17,265 nucleotides of DNA, from IMG/VR virus record IMGVR_UViG_3300045988_092498, positions 1-17,265 of that record; one strand, written 5' to 3'. Under the pieces are notes generated by a model. The model was given only the letters and a program-made list of their open reading frames with translations. It made no database searches and had not been told where the DNA came from. The stretch is from a virus (taxonomy: Duplodnaviria; Heunggongvirae; Uroviricota; Caudoviricetes). This document shows positions 2,614 through 17,265 of this stretch, piece after piece. A program made the translations under genes and the position numbers. Numbering within the stretch: position 1 is the stretch's first letter; each line of letters starts with the position of its first letter.

Positions 2614-3110
2614 TGCCGGTAATTAACACGCATCAGAATATCGCCGCCTTTCTCGACATGCTGGCGGTATCCGAAGGGACGGCGAATCATCCGCTGACGA
2701 AAAACCGGGGCTATGACGTGATAGTCACCGGACTGGACGGGAAGCCGGAAATTTTCACCGACTACAGTGACCACCCGTTCGCGCATGGCCGACCGGCGAA
2801 GGTGTTTAACCGTCGCGGTGAAAAATCCACGGCCTCCGGTCGCTATCAGCAGCTTTACCTGTTCTGGCCGCATTACCGCAAACAGCTTGCCCTGCCGGAT
2901 TTCAGTCCGCTGTCACAGGACAGACTTGCCATTCAGTTGATCCGCGAACGCGGTGCACTGGATGACATCCGGGCGGGACGCATTGAGCGCGCCATTTCAC
3001 GCTGCCGCAATATCTGGGCGTCCCTGCCGGGTGCCGGTTACGGTCAGCGTGAGCATTCACTGGAAAAACTGGTCACCGTCTGGCGTACCGCTGGCGGCGT
3101 ACCGGCTTAA
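2613..3110 (+). CDS. K: Endolysin (lysozyme-type)
   Basis: 165-aa ORF, same length as P2 gpK, with TAATG stop/start overlap with Y and a GGGGGAAA Shine-Dalgarno. Follows the holin as expected. Confidence 0.85.
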   Translation: MPVINTHQNIAAFLDMLAVSEGTANHPLTKNRGYDVIVTGLDGKPEIFTDYSDHPFAHGRPAKVFNRRGEKSTASGRYQQLYLFWPHYRKQLALPDFSPLSQDRLAIQLIRERGALDDIRAGRIERAISRCRNIWASLPGAGYGQREHSLEKLVTVWRTAGGVPA

Positions 3111-4538: not shown

Positions 4539-4983
4539 GTTTAAGCGTTTTGAAGACCGGCTGGCCGGACTGACTGAATCGCTGTCACCGTCAGGGCGTC
4601 GGCGACTGAGTGCCGAACTGGCGAAACGTCTGCGGCAGAGTCAGCAGCGTCGGGTGATGGCACAGAAAGCCCCGGACGGCACACCCTACGTGCCACGCCA
4701 GCAGCAGAGCGCCAGAAAAAAGACCGGTCGCGTTAAGCGAAAAATGTTTGCGAAACTTATCACCAGTCGTTTTTTGCATATCCGCGCCAGCCCGGAACAG
4801 GCATCAATGGAGTTTTACGGCGGGAAGTCACCGAAAATCGCCAGTGTGCATCAGTTCGGTCTGTCGGAAGAAAACCGGAAAGACGGTAAGAAAATTGATT
4901 ATCCGGCGCGTCCTCTGCTCGGCTTTACCGGTGAGGATGTGCAGATGATTGAAGAGATTATCCTGGCTCACCTTGAGCGTTAG
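4531..4983 (+). CDS. S: Tail completion protein S
   Basis: 150-aa ORF, P2 gpS length, overlapping the R stop by 8 nt (translational coupling). Confidence 0.8.
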   Translation: MNEFKRFEDRLAGLTESLSPSGRRRLSAELAKRLRQSQQRRVMAQKAPDGTPYVPRQQQSARKKTGRVKRKMFAKLITSRFLHIRASPEQASMEFYGGKSPKIASVHQFGLSEENRKDGKKIDYPARPLLGFTGEDVQMIEEIILAHLER

Positions 4984-5013
4984 TTTTATCCAGGCAGAGG
5001 CTGATGCGCAATT

Positions 5014-5048
5014 AAACATTGAGCGGCCGTGCTGGTCGCTCAATGTTT
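5014..5048. terminator. Perfect 12-bp inverted repeat (aaacattgagcg / cgctcaatgttt) with an 11-nt loop, between convergent genes; putative terminator
   Basis: Read directly from the sequence. Lies 30 nt after the S stop (+) and 7 nt after the stop of the reverse-strand cargo gene. A T-run (ggtttttattt) occurs about 15 nt downstream on the + strand, not immediately adjacent. Confidence 0.4.
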
Positions 5049-5054
5049 AGAGGT

Positions 5055-5840
5055 TTATGAGTGGTTTTTATTTGATGCTTTGTATTCTAAAACCTTCTTA
5101 TTGGCGTAAAGGAATTTTGCATATGACAGGAATATAAGCAGACCTGAAATGAAATAAGTTAGGGATATTATTAATAATGTTTTTCTGTGGCTGTTATTAT
5201 CTTTAATCTCCTGACTTAACCATTCGGAGTCCTCCTCGTTTAGCTGTAAGAGCTTATTGCAGGCGATCTCAGGAAGTGTGTCTTTTATAAATACGTTTTG
5301 CAGACTCTTGCAATCGGCAAGGCTATAAGTTTTATTAAATTCAACTGTTTTATTTTTGAAGGATAAAAGAACTTTGTCACTATAAACATAGTACATCATA
5401 TTTTTATATGGTATACCTATGGCATCCCTTACTATAGCGGATTGTTCATTGTGTATGTAACATGCGAAGATAATATAAAGAATTCCGGCCAGGACTGCAC
5501 TCATTGTTTTTGTGATGCATAGCGGTTCTGTTATGTCTCCCCAGAAGCGAGTAAGGAAAAAATCCGATGTTTTTAGTTTTCCATCAATCAGCCCCTGCTG
5601 TATCATTCTCACATCTTCGATGCCTGATACATTGATTCCGTTAAGTGTTTTAAATAGTTGAATGTCGCGCCACTCGCGGTCCAGTCTTTTTAATTTTTTG
5701 TCTGAATATCCAAATTTGAAATAATGTGCAATAAGCCTCATAAGGTTACTTTTACCAAAGCTAAAAAATGCTAATACTGCAAAGACCAAAAGATACAAAA
5801 CGATTAGCTCCCACACATTAGTCACATTATAGCTGACCAT
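5055..5840 (-). CDS. Hypothetical membrane protein, three predicted TM helices; AT-rich cargo gene at the S/V junction (P2 orf30 position)
   Basis: 261-aa reverse-strand ORF, ATG at 5838-5840 preceded by AAGGAGA with a 5-nt spacer. Markedly AT-rich relative to flanking genes. Hydrophobic segments WELIVLYLLVFAVLAFFSF, MSAVLAGILYIIFACYI and TLLIISLTYFISGLLIFLSYA. No recognisable catalytic motif. Confidence 0.65.
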   Translation of the reverse strand: MVSYNVTNVWELIVLYLLVFAVLAFFSFGKSNLMRLIAHYFKFGYSDKKLKRLDREWRDIQLFKTLNGINVSGIEDVRMIQQGLIDGKLKTSDFFLTRFWGDITEPLCITKTMSAVLAGILYIIFACYIHNEQSAIVRDAIGIPYKNMMYYVYSDKVLLSFKNKTVEFNKTYSLADCKSLQNVFIKDTLPEIACNKLLQLNEEDSEWLSQEIKDNNSHRKTLLIISLTYFISGLLIFLSYAKFLYANKKVLEYKASNKNHS

Positions 5841-5855
5841 TACGCTCTCCTTGAA

Positions 5856-5905
5856 TGTTGTCTGGTGGTTCTACAAATGAATCCAGATAGCATAACTTTT
5901 ATATA
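5856..5905 (+). promoter_or_regulatory. Candidate late promoter for the V operon (TGTTGT activator-site-like motif plus TATATT -10-like element)
   Basis: TGTTGTCTGGTGGTTCTACA at 5856-5875, 68 bp upstream of the V start, shares the TGTTGT motif found upstream of FI. P2 late promoters are Ogr-dependent with a TGT-N12-ACA-type element near -55; the match here is partial only. Confidence 0.3.
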
Positions 5906-5923
5906 TTGTGCAATCTCACATGC

Positions 5924-6559
5924 ATGAACACTCTCGCAAATATTCAGGAACTCGCGCGCGCACTGCGCAACATGATCCGCACCGGCATTATCGTCGAAAC
6001 CGACCTTAACGCCGGTCGCTGCCGTGTGCAGACCGGCGGCATGTGCACCGACTGGCTTCAGTGGCTGACCCATCGTGCCGGGCGTTCGCGCACATGGTGG
6101 GCACCTTCCGTGGGGGAACAGGTGCTGATTCTGTCCGTGGGCGGTGAACTCGACACGGCGTTCGTTCTGCCGGGGATTTATTCCGGCGATAACCCTGCGC
6201 CGTCTGCGTCGGCGGATGCCCTGCATATCCGTTTCCCTGACGGGGCGGTGATTGAGTATGAACCCGAAACCAGTGCACTCACGGTAAGCGGAATTAAAAC
6301 GGCCAGCGTGACGGCTTCTGATTCTGTTACTGCCACGGTGCCGGTGGTCATAGTGAAAGCGTCAACCCGCATCACCCTGGACACCCCGGAGGTGGTCTGC
6401 ACCAACAGGCTGATTACCGGCACGCTGGAAGTGCAGAAGGGCGGGACGATGCGCGGCAACATTGAACACACCGGCGGTGAACTCTCATCAAACGGTAAGG
6501 TACTGCATACCCATAAACACCCCGGTGACAGTGGCGGCACAACAGGGGGACCTCTATGA
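5924..6559 (+). CDS. V: Baseplate spike/assembly protein V
   Basis: ATG at 5924 within ORF 5906..6559 gives a 211-aa product (MNTLANIQELARALRNM...), the P2 gpV length. First gene of the baseplate block; stop overlaps the W start (ATGA). Confidence 0.85.
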   Translation: MNTLANIQELARALRNMIRTGIIVETDLNAGRCRVQTGGMCTDWLQWLTHRAGRSRTWWAPSVGEQVLILSVGGELDTAFVLPGIYSGDNPAPSASADALHIRFPDGAVIEYEPETSALTVSGIKTASVTASDSVTATVPVVIVKASTRITLDTPEVVCTNRLITGTLEVQKGGTMRGNIEHTGGELSSNGKVLHTHKHPGDSGGTTGGPL

Positions 6560-10563: not shown

Positions 10564-11091
10564 ATGCAGCATTTGATAAATATAACGGCAGGTAATCCAA
10601 AAACGGTTGAACAATATCAATTGACAAAGAACTTTGATGTCGTCTGGTTTTTTACAGAAGATGGTAAGAACTGGTACGAAGAACAAAAGTATTTTGCTGA
10701 TGACACGATAAAAATAGCGTACGACAAAGATAATATCATCCGCTATGTGGAAAAGGATGTGACAGCTATCAGACCGGATGGATTAAGTGTGGTTGAAGTG
10801 GCGGATATTACTGCTAACCGACGGGCGGACATTTCAGGGAACTGGATGTTTAAGGACGGCACAGTGACTAAACGAATTTATACGGCAGAGGAATTGCAGC
10901 AGCAGGCAGAAATTCGGAAAGCCAGACTTCTTGCAGATGCTGAATCCGTGATTTTGCCGCTGGAGCGTGCTGTCAGGCTGAATATGGCAACAGATGAGGA
11001 GCGTAGCCGACTGGATGCATGGGAACGCTACAGCGTTCTGGTCAGTCGTGTGGAGCCTGCACATCCTGAATGGCCGGAAATGCCGCAATAA
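10564..11091 (+). CDS. G: Tail fibre assembly chaperone G
   Basis: 175-aa ORF starting 4 nt after the H stop, P2 gpG length, with the conserved C-terminal ...[21 protein letters not shown]. Confidence 0.8.
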
Positions 11092-11368
11092 GTTGTTTGA
11101 GCTCTGGTGGGAGCTTACATATCTATGGCACAGAGTAAAGCCTAATCTGACAGTCCGCTCTGTGCCAAAAGTAGACGATCATTGCAATACTGATGTTAAG
11201 GAAAGAAATTGTTTGAAAGTAATGAATGCATAAAGAACTGAATAAAAATTTTTCATCAAAAGCACTTTAGTTCCAGCAATTATATTGCTGTGCTCAATGT
11301 TATATGCTTATTTTATAAATGAAATTAATTTCCACAATGCCACCACTAAAGATGGCATCAATTAATCC

Positions 11369-12412
11369 TCAACTATCACTCAATAACTCGAGATAATTTG
11401 AGCAATACGACTTTGGAATAAGGTACATAGGTTTCAGTTTATTGAAGGTGCCAATGCTATCGTTTATTCCGAATTGAGCTCCAAAAAAGAAGTCAGGATC
11501 AAGTGACTCTCTGACCGCTAAAGAAAAAAGATTTAATGCATGAGCTAAATTATAGTGCAGTCGAAATAATTCTTTTCTCCAGTGCTCATACATATCATAT
11601 TTCTCATGATATTTATCTTGGTCCATTCTGATTTTCTTCCAACTCATGTCTCTCTTCCAAAAACCATTTATGTTACTTGCAAAGTTCATATTAGTTATAT
11701 GTTCGCAAAGGTAATACGCATGGTTAGCAAGCTCAACCATTGATAAGTCAAGGTTGGGAAGTCGGCCTGGCATTTGGGTCGTTAGAACGGTCTGGCAGGC
11801 CTCATAAAATCCATCAACAACTTCAGATTGCATTGCATTAGCGATAAGATTATCGCTAATGTTATCCCAGGCATGAAGATACATCTTACTTGTGAGGCGA
11901 TCTACAAGGTAGCGCTCTGTTTTGAACTGGTTACGAGTCGATTGCCCACATATATAATTTTTTTGTTCATTGCTCAGCGTTGCAAAAAAACTCTCAAGAA
12001 CCGTAGCACCAATCACCATCGCTTCATTTAAGTTATATTTATTTTTAATTTCGGCGATGGCATTGTTTAGATGTGGTGGGATGCCGCAATATTTATCATT
12101 GACAACATAATAAAACTCTCTGACTGTGGAAATAGAATTCCAATATGAGAAAAGTTTTTCGAAATCAGCCTTCATTTTATCTAGCGATTTCTTTTCATTA
12201 CTAGGCAGGTCCTCTGGAGCGTATACCTGATAGTAAATTCCTGCATCATATACCCATCCATCATTACCTCTGTCACCTATGTTACCATGAGGTTTTACTT
12301 TATCGAATCCGGGACGATAATATGACATAACTTTCGAAAATAAATTTTCATATTCTATTCCGTTACTTTCATGAACTTTAAGTTTAAAGCTCTGGATATA
12401 TCCATCTGACAC
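11369..12412 (-). CDS. Hypothetical protein of unknown family; AT-rich cargo gene at the G/FI junction (P2 Z/fun position); candidate anti-phage determinant
   Basis: 347-aa reverse-strand ORF with GTG start at 12410-12412 preceded by AGGAGG with a 6-nt spacer. Strongly AT-rich and flanked by AT-rich non-coding DNA (277 bp and 458 bp). No TM segments. Motifs noted by eye: GDRGNDG...YYQVY near the N-terminus and RKELFRLH near the C-terminus. Confidence 0.65.
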   Translation of the reverse strand: MSDGYIQSFKLKVHESNGIEYENLFSKVMSYYRPGFDKVKPHGNIGDRGNDGWVYDAGIYYQVYAPEDLPSNEKKSLDKMKADFEKLFSYWNSISTVREFYYVVNDKYCGIPPHLNNAIAEIKNKYNLNEAMVIGATVLESFFATLSNEQKNYICGQSTRNQFKTERYLVDRLTSKMYLHAWDNISDNLIANAMQSEVVDGFYEACQTVLTTQMPGRLPNLDLSMVELANHAYYLCEHITNMNFASNINGFWKRDMSWKKIRMDQDKYHEKYDMYEHWRKELFRLHYNLAHALNLFSLAVRESLDPDFFFGAQFGINDSIGTFNKLKPMYLIPKSYCSNYLELLSDS

Positions 12413-12748
12413 TTTTGGCCTCCTAACTGAAATTTATTTTTATAACTAAATAAGTGAAGACTTGAGTTAAAAATACTCTCCATTTATTTTGTTTTTTACC
12501 TTCAGTACAGCTTAAGCTGTGCCTAGCTTTGACACTATATCTTTACTAAGCAGTTTTTGGAAACAGATTTTTTGTGACAGTCTATACAATAAATGGTGCT
12601 GCATATGGCTGATAAGAATCTATATATCCACCTGAGCTATAGAGTACCATTAACGACCATTTATCGCTCAAAGCAGGCTGTCAGATTTGATAGCGTTTTG
12701 GCTATGTAAATTGTCAGTCGGAAAATGAGTGTGTACAAATCAGGACAG

Positions 12749-12774
12749 GCGGGCGAATTGCCCGCATTTTCTTT
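12749..12774 (+). terminator. Intrinsic-terminator-like GC hairpin (gcgggc-gaatt-gcccgc) followed by ATTTTCTTTAT
   Basis: Perfect 6-bp GC stem with a 5-nt loop and a T-rich tract on the + strand, about 100 bp upstream of the FI start and just upstream of the candidate FI promoter motif. Confidence 0.55.
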
Positions 12775-12777
12775 ATC

Positions 12778-12840
12778 TGTTGTTTCATCCACTGACCAGC
12801 CAGGTCAAATAGCGTCTCATGCTCTGCACAACAGAAAATA
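12778..12840 (+). promoter_or_regulatory. Candidate late promoter for the FI operon (TGTTGT motif)
   Basis: TGTTGTTTCATCCACTGACCA at 12778-12798, 93 bp upstream of the FI ATG, shares TGTTGT with the region upstream of V. Position agrees with the known P2 P_F late promoter; the dyad match is imperfect. Confidence 0.3.
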
Positions 12841-12870
12841 GTTGCACCCATTAACCACGGAGTTAAACGG

Positions 12871-14061
12871 ATGAGTGACTATCATCACGGCGTGCAGGTG
12901 CTGGAGATTAACGACGGCACCCGCGTCATTTCCACCGTATCCACTGCCATTGTCGGCATGGTCTGCACGGCCAGCGATGCGGATGCGGAAACCTTCCCCC
13001 TCAATAAACCTGTGCTGATTACCAATGTGCAGAGCGCAATTGCAAAGGCCGGTAAAAAAGGCACGCTGGCGGCGTCGTTGCAGGCCATCGCTGACCAGTC
13101 AAAACCGGTCACCGTTGTCGTGCGTGTGGAAGACGGCACCGGCGACGACGAAGAAACGAAACTCGCGCAGACCGTTTCCAATATCATCGGCACCACTGAC
13201 GAAAACGGTCAGTACACCGGACTGAAAGCCCTGCTGGCGGCGGAGTCGGTAACCGGTGTTAAACCGCGTATTCTTGGTGTGCCGGGGCTGGATACCAAAG
13301 AGGTGGCTGTTGCACTGGCATCAGTCTGTCAGAAGCTGCGCGCTTTCGGATATATCAGCGCATGGGGCTGTAAGACCATTTCCGAGGTGAAAGCCTACCG
13401 TCAGAATTTCAGCCAGCGTGAGCTGATGGTCATCTGGCCGGATTTCCTCGCATGGGATACGGTTGCCAGTACCACCGCCACCGCGTATGCCACCGCCCGT
13501 GCGCTGGGTCTGCGTGCCAGAATCGACCAGGAGCAGGGCTGGCATAAAACGCTGTCCAACGTCGGGGTGAACGGTGTTACCGGCATCAGCGCATCTGTAT
13601 TCTGGGATTTGCAGGAGTCCGGCACCGATGCTGACCTGCTGAATGAGTCAGGCGTCACAACGCTGATTCGCCGTGACGGTTTCCGCTTCTGGGGTAACCG
13701 TACCTGCTCTGATGACCCGCTGTTCCTCTTTGAAAACTACACCCGCACCGCGCAGGTGCTGGCCGACACGATGGCTGAGGCGCACATGTGGGCGGTGGAC
13801 AAGCCCATCACCGCAACGCTGATTCGCGACATCGTTGACGGCATCAATGCCAAATTCCGTGAGCTGAAAACAAACGGCTATATCGTGGATGCGACCTGCT
13901 GGTTCAGCGAAGAATCCAACGATGCGGAAACCCTCAAGGCCGGAAAACTGTATATCGACTACGACTATACACCGGTGCCTCCTCTCGAAAACCTGACCCT
14001 GCGCCAGCGTATTACCGATAAATACCTGGCAAATCTGGTCACTTCGGTTAACAGCAATTAA
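12871..14061 (+). CDS. FI: Tail sheath protein FI
   Basis: 396-aa ORF, P2 gpFI length, with a GGAG Shine-Dalgarno; followed by the tube gene. Confidence 0.9.
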   Translation: MSDYHHGVQVLEINDGTRVISTVSTAIVGMVCTASDADAETFPLNKPVLITNVQSAIAKAGKKGTLAASLQAIADQSKPVTVVVRVEDGTGDDEETKLAQTVSNIIGTTDENGQYTGLKALLAAESVTGVKPRILGVPGLDTKEVAVALASVCQKLRAFGYISAWGCKTISEVKAYRQNFSQRELMVIWPDFLAWDTVASTTATAYATARALGLRARIDQEQGWHKTLSNVGVNGVTGISASVFWDLQESGTDADLLNESGVTTLIRRDGFRFWGNRTCSDDPLFLFENYTRTAQVLADTMAEAHMWAVDKPITATLIRDIVDGINAKFRELKTNGYIVDATCWFSEESNDAETLKAGKLYIDYDYTPVPPLENLTLRQRITDKYLANLVTSVNSN

Positions 14062-15076: not shown

Positions 15077-17265
15077 CAATGTAAAATTACAGGTATTGCT
15101 CAGGGCTGTTGACCAGGCATCCCGCCCGTTTAAATCCATCCGCACAGCGAGTAAGTCGCTGTCGGGGGATATCCGGGAAACACAAAAATCACTGCGCGAG
15201 CTGAACGGTCAGGCATCCCGTATTGAGGGATTTCGCAAGACCAGTGCACAGCTCGCCGTGACTGGTCATGCACTTGAAAAGGCACGGCAGGAGGCCGAAG
15301 CCCTTGCCACACAGTTTAAAAACACCGAACGTCCGACCCGTGCTCAGGCGAAAGTGCTGGAATCCGCAAAGCGTGCGGCGGAGGACTTACAGGCGAAATA
15401 TAACCGCCTGACGGATTCCGTTAAACGCCAGCAGCGGGAACTGGCCGCTGTGGGAATTAATACCCGCAATCTTGCACATGATGAGCAGGGACTGAAAAAC
15501 CGTATCAGTGAAACCACCGCACAGCTTAACCGTCAGCGCGACGCGCTGGCGCGTGTCAGTGCGCAACAGGCAAAACTTAACGCAGTCAAACAGCGTTATC
15601 AGGCCGGAAAGGAACTGGCCGGAAATATGGCCTCGGTGGGCGCTGCCGGTGTGGGGATTGCGGCGGCGGGAACGATGGCCGGAGTTAAGTTGCTGATGCC
15701 CGGTTATGAGTTTGCGCAGAAAAACTCAGAATTGCAGGCTGTGCTCGGTGTGGCAAAAGACTCCGCCGAAATGGCCGCGCTACGCAAGCAGGCGCGCCAG
15801 CTCGGCGACAATACCGCAGCCTCGGCAGATGATGCAGCCGGTGCGCAGATTATTATTGCGAAAGCCGGTGGGGATGTTGATGCCATTCAGGCGGCAACGC
15901 CGGTCACGCTGAATATGGCGCTGGCGAACCGTCGCACGATGGAAGAAAACGCCGCCCTGCTGATGGGGATGAAATCCGCCTTTCAGCTTTCAAACGATAA
16001 GGTCGCTCATATCGGGGATGTTCTCTCCATGACGATGAACAAAACCGCCGCCGATTTTGATGGCATGAGCGATGCGCTGACCTATGCCGCACCTGTGGCA
16101 AAAAATGCCGGTGTCAGCATTGAAGAAACCGCCGCAATGGTCGGGGCACTGCATGATGCAAAAATTACCGGTTCAATGGCGGGGACGGGAAGCCGTGCCG
16201 TGTTAAGCCGCCTGCAGGCACCGACGGGAAAAGCATGGGATGCACTGAAAGAGCTTGGCGTGAAAACCTCAGACAGTAAAGGGAATACCCGACCAGTATT
16301 TACCATTCTGAAAGAAATGCAGGCCAGTTTTGAGAAAAACCGGCTCGGTACTGCCCAGCAGGCTGAATACATGAAAACTATTTTCGGGGAGGAGGCCAGC
16401 TCAGCCGCCGCCGTGCTGATGACTGCCGCCTCAACCGGAAAGCTGGACAAACTGACCGTTGCGTTTAAAGCCTCAGACGGGAAGACCGCCGAGCTGGTAA
16501 ATATCATGCAGGACAACCTCGGCGGTGACTTTAAGGAGTTTCAGTCCGCTTATGAGGCGGTGGGGACTGACCTGTTTGACCAGCAGGAAGGCGCGCTGCG
16601 TAAGCTCACGCAGACGGCCACAAAGTATGTGTTAAAACTCGACGGCTGGATACAGAAAAACAAATCACTGGCGTCAACCATCGGCCTCATTGTCGGTGGC
16701 GCACTGGCGCTTACTGGCATCATCGGTGCCATTGGTCTTGTAGCCTGGCCGGTTATCACCGGCATTAATGCCATCATCGCGGCAGCAGGCGCAATGGGGG
16801 CAATTTTCACGACGGTTGGCAGTGCTGTTATGACCGCCATCGGGGCGATTAGCTGGCCGGTTGTGGCTGTGGTGGCCGCTATTGTCGCCGGGGCGTTACT
16901 TATCCGTAAATACTGGGAGCCTGTCAGCGCATTCTTTGGCGGTGTGGTTGAAGGGCTGAAAGCGGCATTTGCGCCGGTGGGGGAGCTGTTCACGCCACTT
17001 AAGCCGGTGTTTGACTGGCTGGGCGAAAAGTTACAGGCCGCGTGGCAGTGGTTTAAAAACCTGATTGCCCCGGTCAAAGCCACCCGGGACACCCTGAACC
17101 GTTGCCGTGACACGGGCGTCATGTTCGGGCAGGCACTGGCTGACGCGCTGATGCTGCCGCTTAATGCGTTCAACAAACTGCGCAGCGGTATTGACTGGGT
17201 ACTGGAAAAACTCGGCGTCATCAACAAAGAGTCAGGCACGCTTGACCAGACCGCCGCCAGAACTC
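15069..17265 (+). CDS. T: Tail tape measure protein T, N-terminal about 730 aa (3' end outside the window)
   Basis: ATG at 15069 (MSNNVKLQVLLRAVDQASRPF...). The frame appears open to the window end, which is why it is absent from the stop-delimited ORF track. Coiled-coil-rich N-terminus and Gly/Ala-rich hydrophobic stretches typical of tape measure proteins. Follows E/E' as in P2. Confidence 0.85.
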   Translation, partial: MSNNVKLQVLLRAVDQASRPFKSIRTASKSLSGDIRETQKSLRELNGQASRIEGFRKTSAQLAVTGHALEKARQEAEALATQFKNTERPTRAQAKVLESAKRAAEDLQAKYNRLTDSVKRQQRELAAVGINTRNLAHDEQGLKNRISETTAQLNRQRDALARVSAQQAKLNAVKQRYQAGKELAGNMASVGAAGVGIAAAGTMAGVKLLMPGYEFAQKNSELQAVLGVAKDSAEMAALRKQARQLGDNTAASADDAAGAQIIIAKAGGDVDAIQAATPVTLNMALANRRTMEENAALLMGMKSAFQLSNDKVAHIGDVLSMTMNKTAADFDGMSDALTYAAPVAKNAGVSIEETAAMVGALHDAKITGSMAGTGSRAVLSRLQAPTGKAWDALKELGVKTSDSKGNTRPVFTILKEMQASFEKNRLGTAQQAEYMKTIFGEEASSAAAVLMTAASTGKLDKLTVAFKASDGKTAELVNIMQDNLGGDFKEFQSAYEAVGTDLFDQQEGALRKLTQTATKYVLKLDGWIQKNKSLASTIGLIVGGALALTGIIGAIGLVAWPVITGINAIIAAAGAMGAIFTTVGSAVMTAIGAISWPVVAVVAAIVAGALLIRKYWEPVSAFFGGVVEGLKAAFAPVGELFTPLKPVFDWLGEKLQAAWQWFKNLIAPVKATRDTLNRCRDTGVMFGQALADALMLPLNAFNKLRSGIDWVLEKLGVINKESGTLDQTAART

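Follow-up and report, generated by a model that had tools for sequence, protein, structure and literature searches.

Where do the late transcripts of a P2-like prophage end when a gene that points the other way lies directly behind their last gene? The question is raised by the interval between genes G and FI in the phage DNA of IMG/VR record IMGVR_UViG_3300045988_092498, a stretch of 17,265 nucleotides (nt) that we call the window. An earlier note on this DNA had proposed that late transcripts from V through G run antisense across the backward cargo gene in this interval, that they silence it during lytic growth while it stays on in lysogens, and that a terminator just before FI ends the read-through. 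In our reading, to which we give a probability of about 0.55, the cargo is foreign DNA in the Z/fun hotspot, placed between the stop codon of G and the original terminator of the V operon; late transcripts would enter it in antisense, Rho would attenuate them, and the rest would stop at 12749-12774. For the map of this locus, the useful corrections concern which element is the true V-operon terminator and what the first hairpin after G is.

Gene calls, Pfam matches and homology place the window in the late region of a P2-like (Peduovirus) prophage, with the lysis genes, R, S, a homologue of Orf30 on the - strand, V-W-J-I-H-G, the cargo on the - strand, FI, FII and more tail genes in that order. 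The G-FI interval spans 1.78 kb, holds one long open reading frame (ORF), the cargo gene, and has a GC content of 0.31-0.42, against 0.55-0.60 (about 0.57) in the backbone. This interval is P2's Z/fun hotspot, which is known to harbour anti-phage genes as a reservoir (PMC9122126; bioRxiv 10.1101/2024.10.15.618418). The position between G and FI, both inverted repeats, and a variable and compositionally foreign content are all found here, and the locus is an ordinary member of the known hotspot, with a new cargo in the majority configuration.

The site at 12749-12774, which the earlier note had singled out as the first convincing terminator on the + strand, is the top terminator-like site of the whole window. 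It forms seven pairs (six G-C and one G-T) around a loop of 3-5 nt, with -11.6 kcal/mol for the stem-loop by itself, and combines a G+C-rich stem, a short loop, the U-tract ATTTTCTTTA directly 3' of the stem and a position at the end of a transcription unit in relatives. A generic terminator scan of the window was not above chance (21 sites, compared with 19.7 +/- 6.5 in shuffled sequences), so the case for this site rests on its relatives. In 43 distinct relatives the terminator stands at this very place; 94.7% of its stem cells are paired, and its T-tract is invariant or nearly so. One relative carries a compensatory change from G-C to A-U in the stem, which is not above shuffles, and the covariation test on the stem was uninformative because the 43 relatives are too similar and offer this single compensatory pair.

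The layout can be understood from a comparison with about 60 P2-like loci, in some of which the hotspot is empty. We fetched 80 loci encoding close relatives of FI and measured the G-FI interval in them. Six have an interval of only 131-135 nt, next to G types that differ from one another and share 36-80% identity with the G of the window. In these empty loci the stop codon of G is followed, after about 5 nt, by GGCGGGC-NNATT-GCCCGCC-TTTTCTTTA and then directly by the region of pF, the promoter of the F operon. All the occupied loci retain the terminator beside pF, with the repeat arms and the cargo upstream of it. Since the terminator lies about 5 nt after G where the hotspot is empty, the predicted terminator at 12749-12774 is the V operon's own, and the insertion of the cargo has displaced it 1.66 kb from G. 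The right arm ends 3 nt before the stem of the terminator, and the terminator ends 2-4 nt before the activator site of pF.

That a promoter motif for FI follows the terminator was confirmed by homology to the annotated pF activator site of P2. The TGT-N12-CCA of the window, which we assign by this homology, departs from the TGT-N12-ACA type of dyad just as pF of P2 does. Transcription from pF would start at 12845-12847, about 55 nt downstream of this dyad, judging from the mapped start of P2 at 17626-17628. A predicted + strand terminator thus stands before pF in occupied and empty relatives alike, and it would insulate FI in the way the earlier note had supposed. An Rfam search of 10900-13000 at E <= 10 gave chance-level matches only and no known RNA family. 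A 38-codon ORF at 12726-12842 (MSVYKSGQAGELPAF...), which spans the terminator and pF, is probably due to chance because its ATG belongs to the right arm and empty sites lack it; P2 has an in-frame counterpart of 31 codons.

The first hairpin after G has another identity. As described before, the hairpin at 11127-11166 has a 9-bp stem and no U-run. It is stable (-18.7 kcal/mol, z = -4.2 against shuffled sequences), and on two counts it does not look like an intrinsic terminator: its loop is 22 nt long, where 3-8 nt would be expected, and there is no 3' U-tract on either strand. On the + strand it is followed by AAAAGTAG; on the - strand, AUAGAUAUG comes after the stem and the U-run lies 5' of it. 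The A-run beside the hairpin is kept in relatives. Its loop is conserved as much as its stem, and 95% of the stem cells are paired, with a single compensatory pair that is not above shuffles; here too the covariation test was uninformative because the relatives are too alike. The equal conservation of loop and stem, together with the minimal covariation, suggests that the sequence itself is recognised and speaks less for a simple RNA structure. A reading frame that runs through the left repeat was dismissed as chance.

The hairpin belongs to a left arm of about 110 nt, which begins inside G, within its last 28 nt. Every occupied locus has this arm together with a right arm of about 90 nt. The left arm is kept in 41 distinct occupied loci, and the empty sites have neither arm. 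When the consensus left arm was aligned to the reverse complement of the right arm, the match extended over about 95 nt with a score of 52, compared with 21.1 +/- 3.7 (maximum 33) in shuffles. A BLAST search with the arm retrieved a "left inverted repeat" and a matching right repeat annotated in AJ512676, AJ512677 and AJ512681, the "proviral Z-region" of P2-EC30, P2-EC31 and P2-EC48. Because the hairpin aligns with the annotated left inverted repeat, we identify it by homology as a known cassette-boundary repeat and not as a weak terminator.

One may go further and propose that the hairpin and its partner arm have no role in transcription and are the DNA sites where recombination between phages and bacteria swaps Z-region cassettes. 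We consider this somewhat better than an even bet; it covers the hairpin only and is compatible with either of the transcription models weighed below. Left and right inverted repeats are annotated as such in AJ512676 and AJ512681, and the review PMC8987985, summarising Nilsson et al. 2004, states that the inverted repeats enable site-specific recombination. The arms flank every cargo and are missing from empty sites, they recur at other hotspots and in Stx phages, and they are more similar (about 80% in nucleotides) than the structural proteins that flank them (about 42% in amino acids). Set against this, no recombinase is tied to the arms here, and one locus (L167) carries a cassette duplication that includes the 3' end of G, which points to homologous rather than site-specific exchange.

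The repeat family itself is worth describing. In locus L167 (10201-11464), two left arms stand in tandem, each behind its own copy of the G 3' end (residues 119-175), and bracket two successive cargos ahead of a single right arm, which looks like cassette stacking by homologous exchange. The left repeat was also seen after S (L186, L187, L162, L164, L196), after the portal gene Q (L087, L177), after D and before ogr (L151), and by a Gabija-like gene pair (L133). The 3' ends of S, Q and D are the ends of other P2 late operons. At these places the repeat consists of a hairpin with the conserved loop, followed by AAAAGCGGAC, and of a matching right arm where one is detectable, bracketing a cargo after S; the phages concerned have flanking proteins about 42% identical to those of the window and arms about 80% identical in DNA. 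In lambdoid phages that convert to Stx1a and Stx2c, paired arms flank a gene for a 517-residue protein, between early-left genes resembling yfdR/yfdS and the integrase (for instance in the Stx2c-converting phage LC727877, L389, with the left arm at 2995-3050 and the right arm at 4869-4951; also L098, L115, L125, L184, L195 and L198). The repeat family therefore crosses phage types. The innermost halves of the repeats (AAAAGCGGAC ... GTCCGCTTTT; 11167-11176 and 12655-12670 in the window) resemble a bidirectional intrinsic terminator split by the cargo, and in the window they are degenerate, with AAAAGTAGAC and GACCATTTAT in place of this consensus. A cargo-less element made of arms only was not found: the pattern AAAAGCGGAC-N0-30-GTCCGCTTTT returned 63 generic terminators in unrelated phages, none of them with arm flanks.

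If neither the hairpin nor its arm is a terminator, what stops transcripts that leave G? The earlier note had seen no classical hairpin and U-tract on the + strand downstream of G, and this held: in 11092-12748 our scan found only two weak terminator-like sites, at 12072-12088 and 12677-12694, with three G-C pairs each and a poor T-tract, and an RNAfold-based scan of the same stretch found no convincing terminator. As nothing after G is shaped as an intrinsic terminator, some read-through is the default expectation. Activation of the P2 late genes by Ogr acts at initiation, and no antitermination is known. Rho-dependent polarity is established in the P2 late genes and is suppressed by Psu of P4 (PMC3821671). 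Judged from composition only, the window also has candidate loading sites for Rho, which would be untranslated, C-rich and G-poor stretches of about 80 nt. In 78-nt windows of the + strand, C exceeds G at 11292-11410, about 200 nt past G (C/G 1.9-2.3), at 11572-11690 (2.7) and at 12212-12330 (2.3), against a median of 0.91 for the whole window, where only 5% of such windows exceed 1.5. Across the cargo as a whole this rut-like signal is modest (C 0.196, G 0.170).

Our best reading is thus a partial read-through that would be attenuated by Rho within the cargo, with the remainder stopped at 12749-12774. The foreign DNA, made up of the inverted-repeat arms and a backward, AT-rich, defence-like gene that has a putative promoter of its own, sits between the stop codon of G and the V terminator. 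When Ogr-type activation fires pV, polymerases that pass G would meet no intrinsic terminator and enter the cargo in antisense. Read-through is probably attenuated, because its RNA would be untranslated and contains stretches with C in excess of G, and because late transcripts of P2 are known targets of Rho. Much of this RNA is probably removed by Rho inside the cargo. Polymerases that escape would be halted at 12749-12774, an element whose presence and position are plain from the comparison, and would in this way be kept out of the activator site and promoter of pF. The hairpin at 11127-11166 would be at most a pause site or a structure that protects the 3' end of the G mRNA. The antisense transcription proposed earlier is accordingly retained in part: the lack of an intrinsic stop after G favors it, and the untranslated RNA, the rut-like windows and the Rho polarity of P2 late genes weaken it.

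Several points weigh against this reading. The record of P2 has a "putative terminator for the V operon" ahead of fun(Z), so at least some cassettes block read-through. The long and stable hairpin 36 nt past G could pause polymerase and aid early termination by Rho or another factor. H-NS bound to the AT-rich cargo, or collisions with transcription of the cargo, could also stop polymerases. The conservation of the terminator in loci with antisense cargos may only mirror recent recombination among very similar phages, with covariation too sparse to show selection. Finally, we infer the read-through, its extent and its effect on the cargo alike; a literature search of incomplete coverage found no published 3'-end mapping or RNA sequencing of P2 late operons.

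In an alternative reading, read-through is negligible. Late transcripts would end about 100-300 nt past G through Rho, aided by pausing at the left-repeat hairpin, by H-NS or by collisions, and would be trimmed back to the hairpin, which protects the 3' end of the G mRNA; the terminator at 12749-12774 would be a relic that shields pF from stray or cargo-derived transcription. The first rut-like window starts early enough for this (about 11292), Rho acts on untranslated P2 late RNA, and the stable hairpin (-18.7 kcal/mol) lies 27-39 nt past the final gene of an operon at several types of hotspot. The terminator beside pF also has a job apart from read-through of G, as about 15 of the 20 sense cargos described below use it as their sole intrinsic terminator downstream. 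Yet the hairpin lacks a U-tract, and a loop conserved like the stem speaks for recognition of DNA or by a protein rather than for a role at an RNA end. The rut-like signal across the cargo is modest, and the + strand shielding terminators carried by 20% of the backward cargos are easier to understand if read-through is real. On balance we regard this alternative as rather unlikely.

Whether antisense transcription is a device to silence the cargo can be assessed across the hotspot. From 109 G-FI loci we obtained 53 distinct occupied cargo types. Classified by their long ORFs, 20 types have all genes backward, as in the window, 20 have all genes co-directional with the late operon, and 13 are mixed. 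Among the 25 types whose G-proximal gene is backward, five, including fun(Z) of P2, have a hairpin and T-tract on the + strand in the stretch that separates the left arm from the 3' end of the cargo; the other 20, including the window, have no such shielding terminator. The strength of the terminator beside pF is the same whichever way the cargo points, with a mean of -13.8 kcal/mol in backward-only loci (n = 17) and -13.9 in forward-only loci (n = 20), and about 15 of the 20 forward cargos have no other intrinsic terminator downstream. The weakest of the 17 scored backward-only loci is P2 (-6.3), which has a shielding terminator of its own. We also looked for the same cargo in both orientations, a sign of inversion between the arms, and did not find one.

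The full model of the earlier note, an evolved antisense switch that silences the cargo in lytic growth and leaves it on in lysogens, can be weighed against this census. The geometry permits such a switch, and the cargo is similar to a toxic effector domain from Lamassu/ABC-3C systems, a kind of protein that a phage might want off during its own replication. Against it stand the unbiased orientation (20 antisense-only, 20 sense-only and 13 mixed types of 53), a homologous cassette that is co-directional with the late genes in Klebsiella phage ST147-VIM1phi7.1, and antisense cargos, such as P2 fun(Z), that are shielded by their own terminator; nothing indicates, either, that the cargo is harmful to the phage that carries it. 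The unbiased orientation, the co-directional Klebsiella copy and the shielded cargos together argue against a conserved silencing design. Silencing by design is not supported by the comparison, and we think such a switch quite improbable. An effect of read-through on the cargo of the window is possible, and any damping of the cargo in lytic growth would then be a by-product of where the hotspot lies.

The features of the locus are collected in Table 1.

Table 1. Features at and around the G-FI interval, in positions of the window.
Feature	Position	Strand	Basis or remarks
Gene G, tail-fibre assembly, last gene of the V-W-J-I-H-G late operon	10564..11091	+	Pfam Caudo_TAP, E = 6.9e-32; homologous to P2 G
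Left inverted repeat (IR-L) of the P2 Z/fun region, from inside the 3' end of G to the cargo boundary	11064..11176		Aligns to the "left inverted repeat" of AJ512676 (3-115)
Hairpin within IR-L, 9-bp stem, 22-nt loop	11127..11166		GGCACAGAG (11127-11135) pairs with CTCTGTGCC (11158-11166)
First rut-like stretch	11292..11410	+	Composition (C > G)
Candidate terminator hairpin of the cargo, 10 nt past its stop codon, U-rich interrupted tail	11336..11359	-	Fold of -17 kcal/mol for a 73-nt stretch, z = -2.6
Cargo gene, 347 aa, GTG start behind GGAGG, AT-rich	11369..12412	-	ORF; N-terminal ~155 aa homologous to ABC-3C/Lamassu-type effector domain
Promoter-like site of the cargo, TTTCCA-18-TATAGT	12534..12563	-	Consensus match (9/12) only
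Right inverted repeat (IR-R) of the Z/fun region	12655..12745 (about)		Aligns to the right repeat of AJ512676 (1942-2032)
Predicted intrinsic terminator of the V operon (t_V), GCGGGC-GAATT-GCCCGC + ATTTTCTTTA	12749..12774	+	Consensus scan, folding, relatives
pF activator (Ogr-type) binding region, TGT-N12-CCA at 12781-12798	12776..12803	+	Homology to P2 17555-17583
Gene FI, tail sheath, first gene of the F operon	12871..14061	+	Pfam Phage_sheath_1, Phage_sheath_1C, Gp18_domIII_N

The cargo is the sole gene of at least 50 amino acids that fits between the arms. It has no match in Pfam, NCBIfam or PHROG, and a weak match to LmuA of PADLOC (E = 3e-8, residues 16-110). Its first ~155 residues share 41% identity, over 159 amino acids, with the N-terminal effector domain of a protein that carries CTD10 (PF20275). 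We rejected the idea that it is a Lamassu system: there is no partner ATPase (an SMC/ABC protein of the LmuB type) and no CTD10, and the homology is confined to the N-terminal effector domain. By homology, the cargo is a stand-alone candidate effector of a defence-like kind.

The cargo is rare. Among 5426 complete Escherichia coli genomes it occurs in two, whereas its flanks occur in 1717. In E. coli E308 (NZ_CP030281; L203, 970-2018) it has 98.6% nucleotide identity to the copy in the window and its annotation as two overlapping hypothetical proteins points to a frameshift; that prophage is truncated downstream, with FI and D present as partial pseudogenes. A more distant copy of the cassette is found in Klebsiella phage ST147-VIM1phi7.1 (L003, 2501-4046), with 81% nucleotide identity to 11117-12668 of the window, including the left-arm hairpin. 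There the cassette sits in the S-V hotspot and is inverted; its hairpin abuts the annotated start of V, and its cargo is co-directional with the late genes. The candidate terminator hairpin of the cargo and its promoter-like region are both retained in this copy.

Two further regions of the window deserve mention. The interval 4983-5925 is a second hotspot. A hairpin with a 12-bp stem and no good U-tract follows S (about 5013-5047, -26 kcal/mol) and corresponds to the "putative terminator for O operon" annotated in P2. Downstream of it lies the backward, AT-rich homologue of Orf30 (5055-5840, phrog_2407), whose start codon is 85 nt from the start of V, so its promoter must overlap pV. Upstream of the G-FI interval, GC falls to 0.38-0.48 between 9300 and 10800, over the second half of H and the first half of G, and related phages have G proteins with anything from 34% to 95% identity; both observations fit a horizontal exchange of the tail-fibre tip together with its chaperone.

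The practical value of these results is a transcription-unit map for a much-used source of anti-phage genes, in which the predicted V terminator is the hairpin and T-tract before pF, with most Z/fun cargos upstream of it, and not the hairpin of the left repeat. The map bears on the cloning of hotspot systems "with native context", on the reading of prophage RNA-sequencing data, where antisense signal over the cargo is to be expected, and on a possible modulation of defence genes once the helper phage, or a P4 satellite with Psu, enters lytic growth. The layout will not surprise a specialist on P2, and the regulatory claim is put forward as a proposal. Taken further, cargo hotspots of the P2 type may by design lie inside late units, between the last gene and the terminator, so that late transcription would invade the cargo, in antisense or sense according to its orientation, at a level that Rho sets and Psu of P4 would raise. 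This is the most speculative of the ideas considered here and we hold it to be very doubtful; if it were true, read-through raised by Psu would change the expression of defence cargo in the helper prophage and tie the conflict between helper and satellite to the control of hotspot genes.

The closest known system is the fun(Z) locus of P2 itself (NC_001895, 15275-17651), which likewise lies between G and FI within the same arms, holds a backward and AT-rich lysogenic-conversion or defence gene, and has the same hairpin and T-tract directly before the annotated activator site of pF. The two cargo genes are unrelated. P2 differs in that, past G and ahead of the 3' end of fun(Z), it has a + strand hairpin with a long T-run (15639-15666), whereas the window has none there; the P2 record calls it "putative rho-independent terminator for V operon". 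This terminator lies inside the fun(Z) cassette, by the 3' end of fun(Z), and the record carries no annotation of the hairpin next to pF, which is degraded in P2 (-6.3 kcal/mol, compared with -13.0 in the window). The Z-regions of other P2-like coliphages (AJ512676-AJ512681) are also close, as both arms of the window align to their annotated left and right repeats, whereas the innermost part is degenerate in the window (AAAAGTAGAC / GACCATTTAT in place of the AAAAGCGGAC / GTCCGCTTTT consensus). According to the record annotations and PMC8987985, Nilsson, Karlsson and Haggard-Ljungquist described these inverted repeats in 2004.

Looser likenesses exist to other phages. Morons are a concept of Juhala and Hendrix, and bor of lambda is transcribed opposite to the late transcript. 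Like the cargo of the window with its candidate promoter, morons in late operons of temperate phages are genes of foreign composition that carry their own promoter at an operon boundary, are expressed from the prophage and are exposed to late transcription. The insertion in the window differs in lying between the last gene and the terminator of an operon; late transcription in P2 is not known to be antiterminated, so that Rho can act, whereas in lambda the Q-modified polymerase reads through. The predicted read-through RNA of the window also resembles the substrates of the Rho/Psu systems in being untranslated, antisense and AT-rich with stretches of C in excess of G, its rut and Rho assignments being predictions from composition only. 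Finally, the PeSL cassettes of T4-type phages (PMC2839356) likewise place short conserved intergenic stem-loop motifs around variable, non-essential genes, for which modular shuffling has been proposed. PeSLs are direct repeats with a strong promoter and a working terminator, whereas the arms of P2 are inverted repeats with neither a promoter nor a U-tract terminator.

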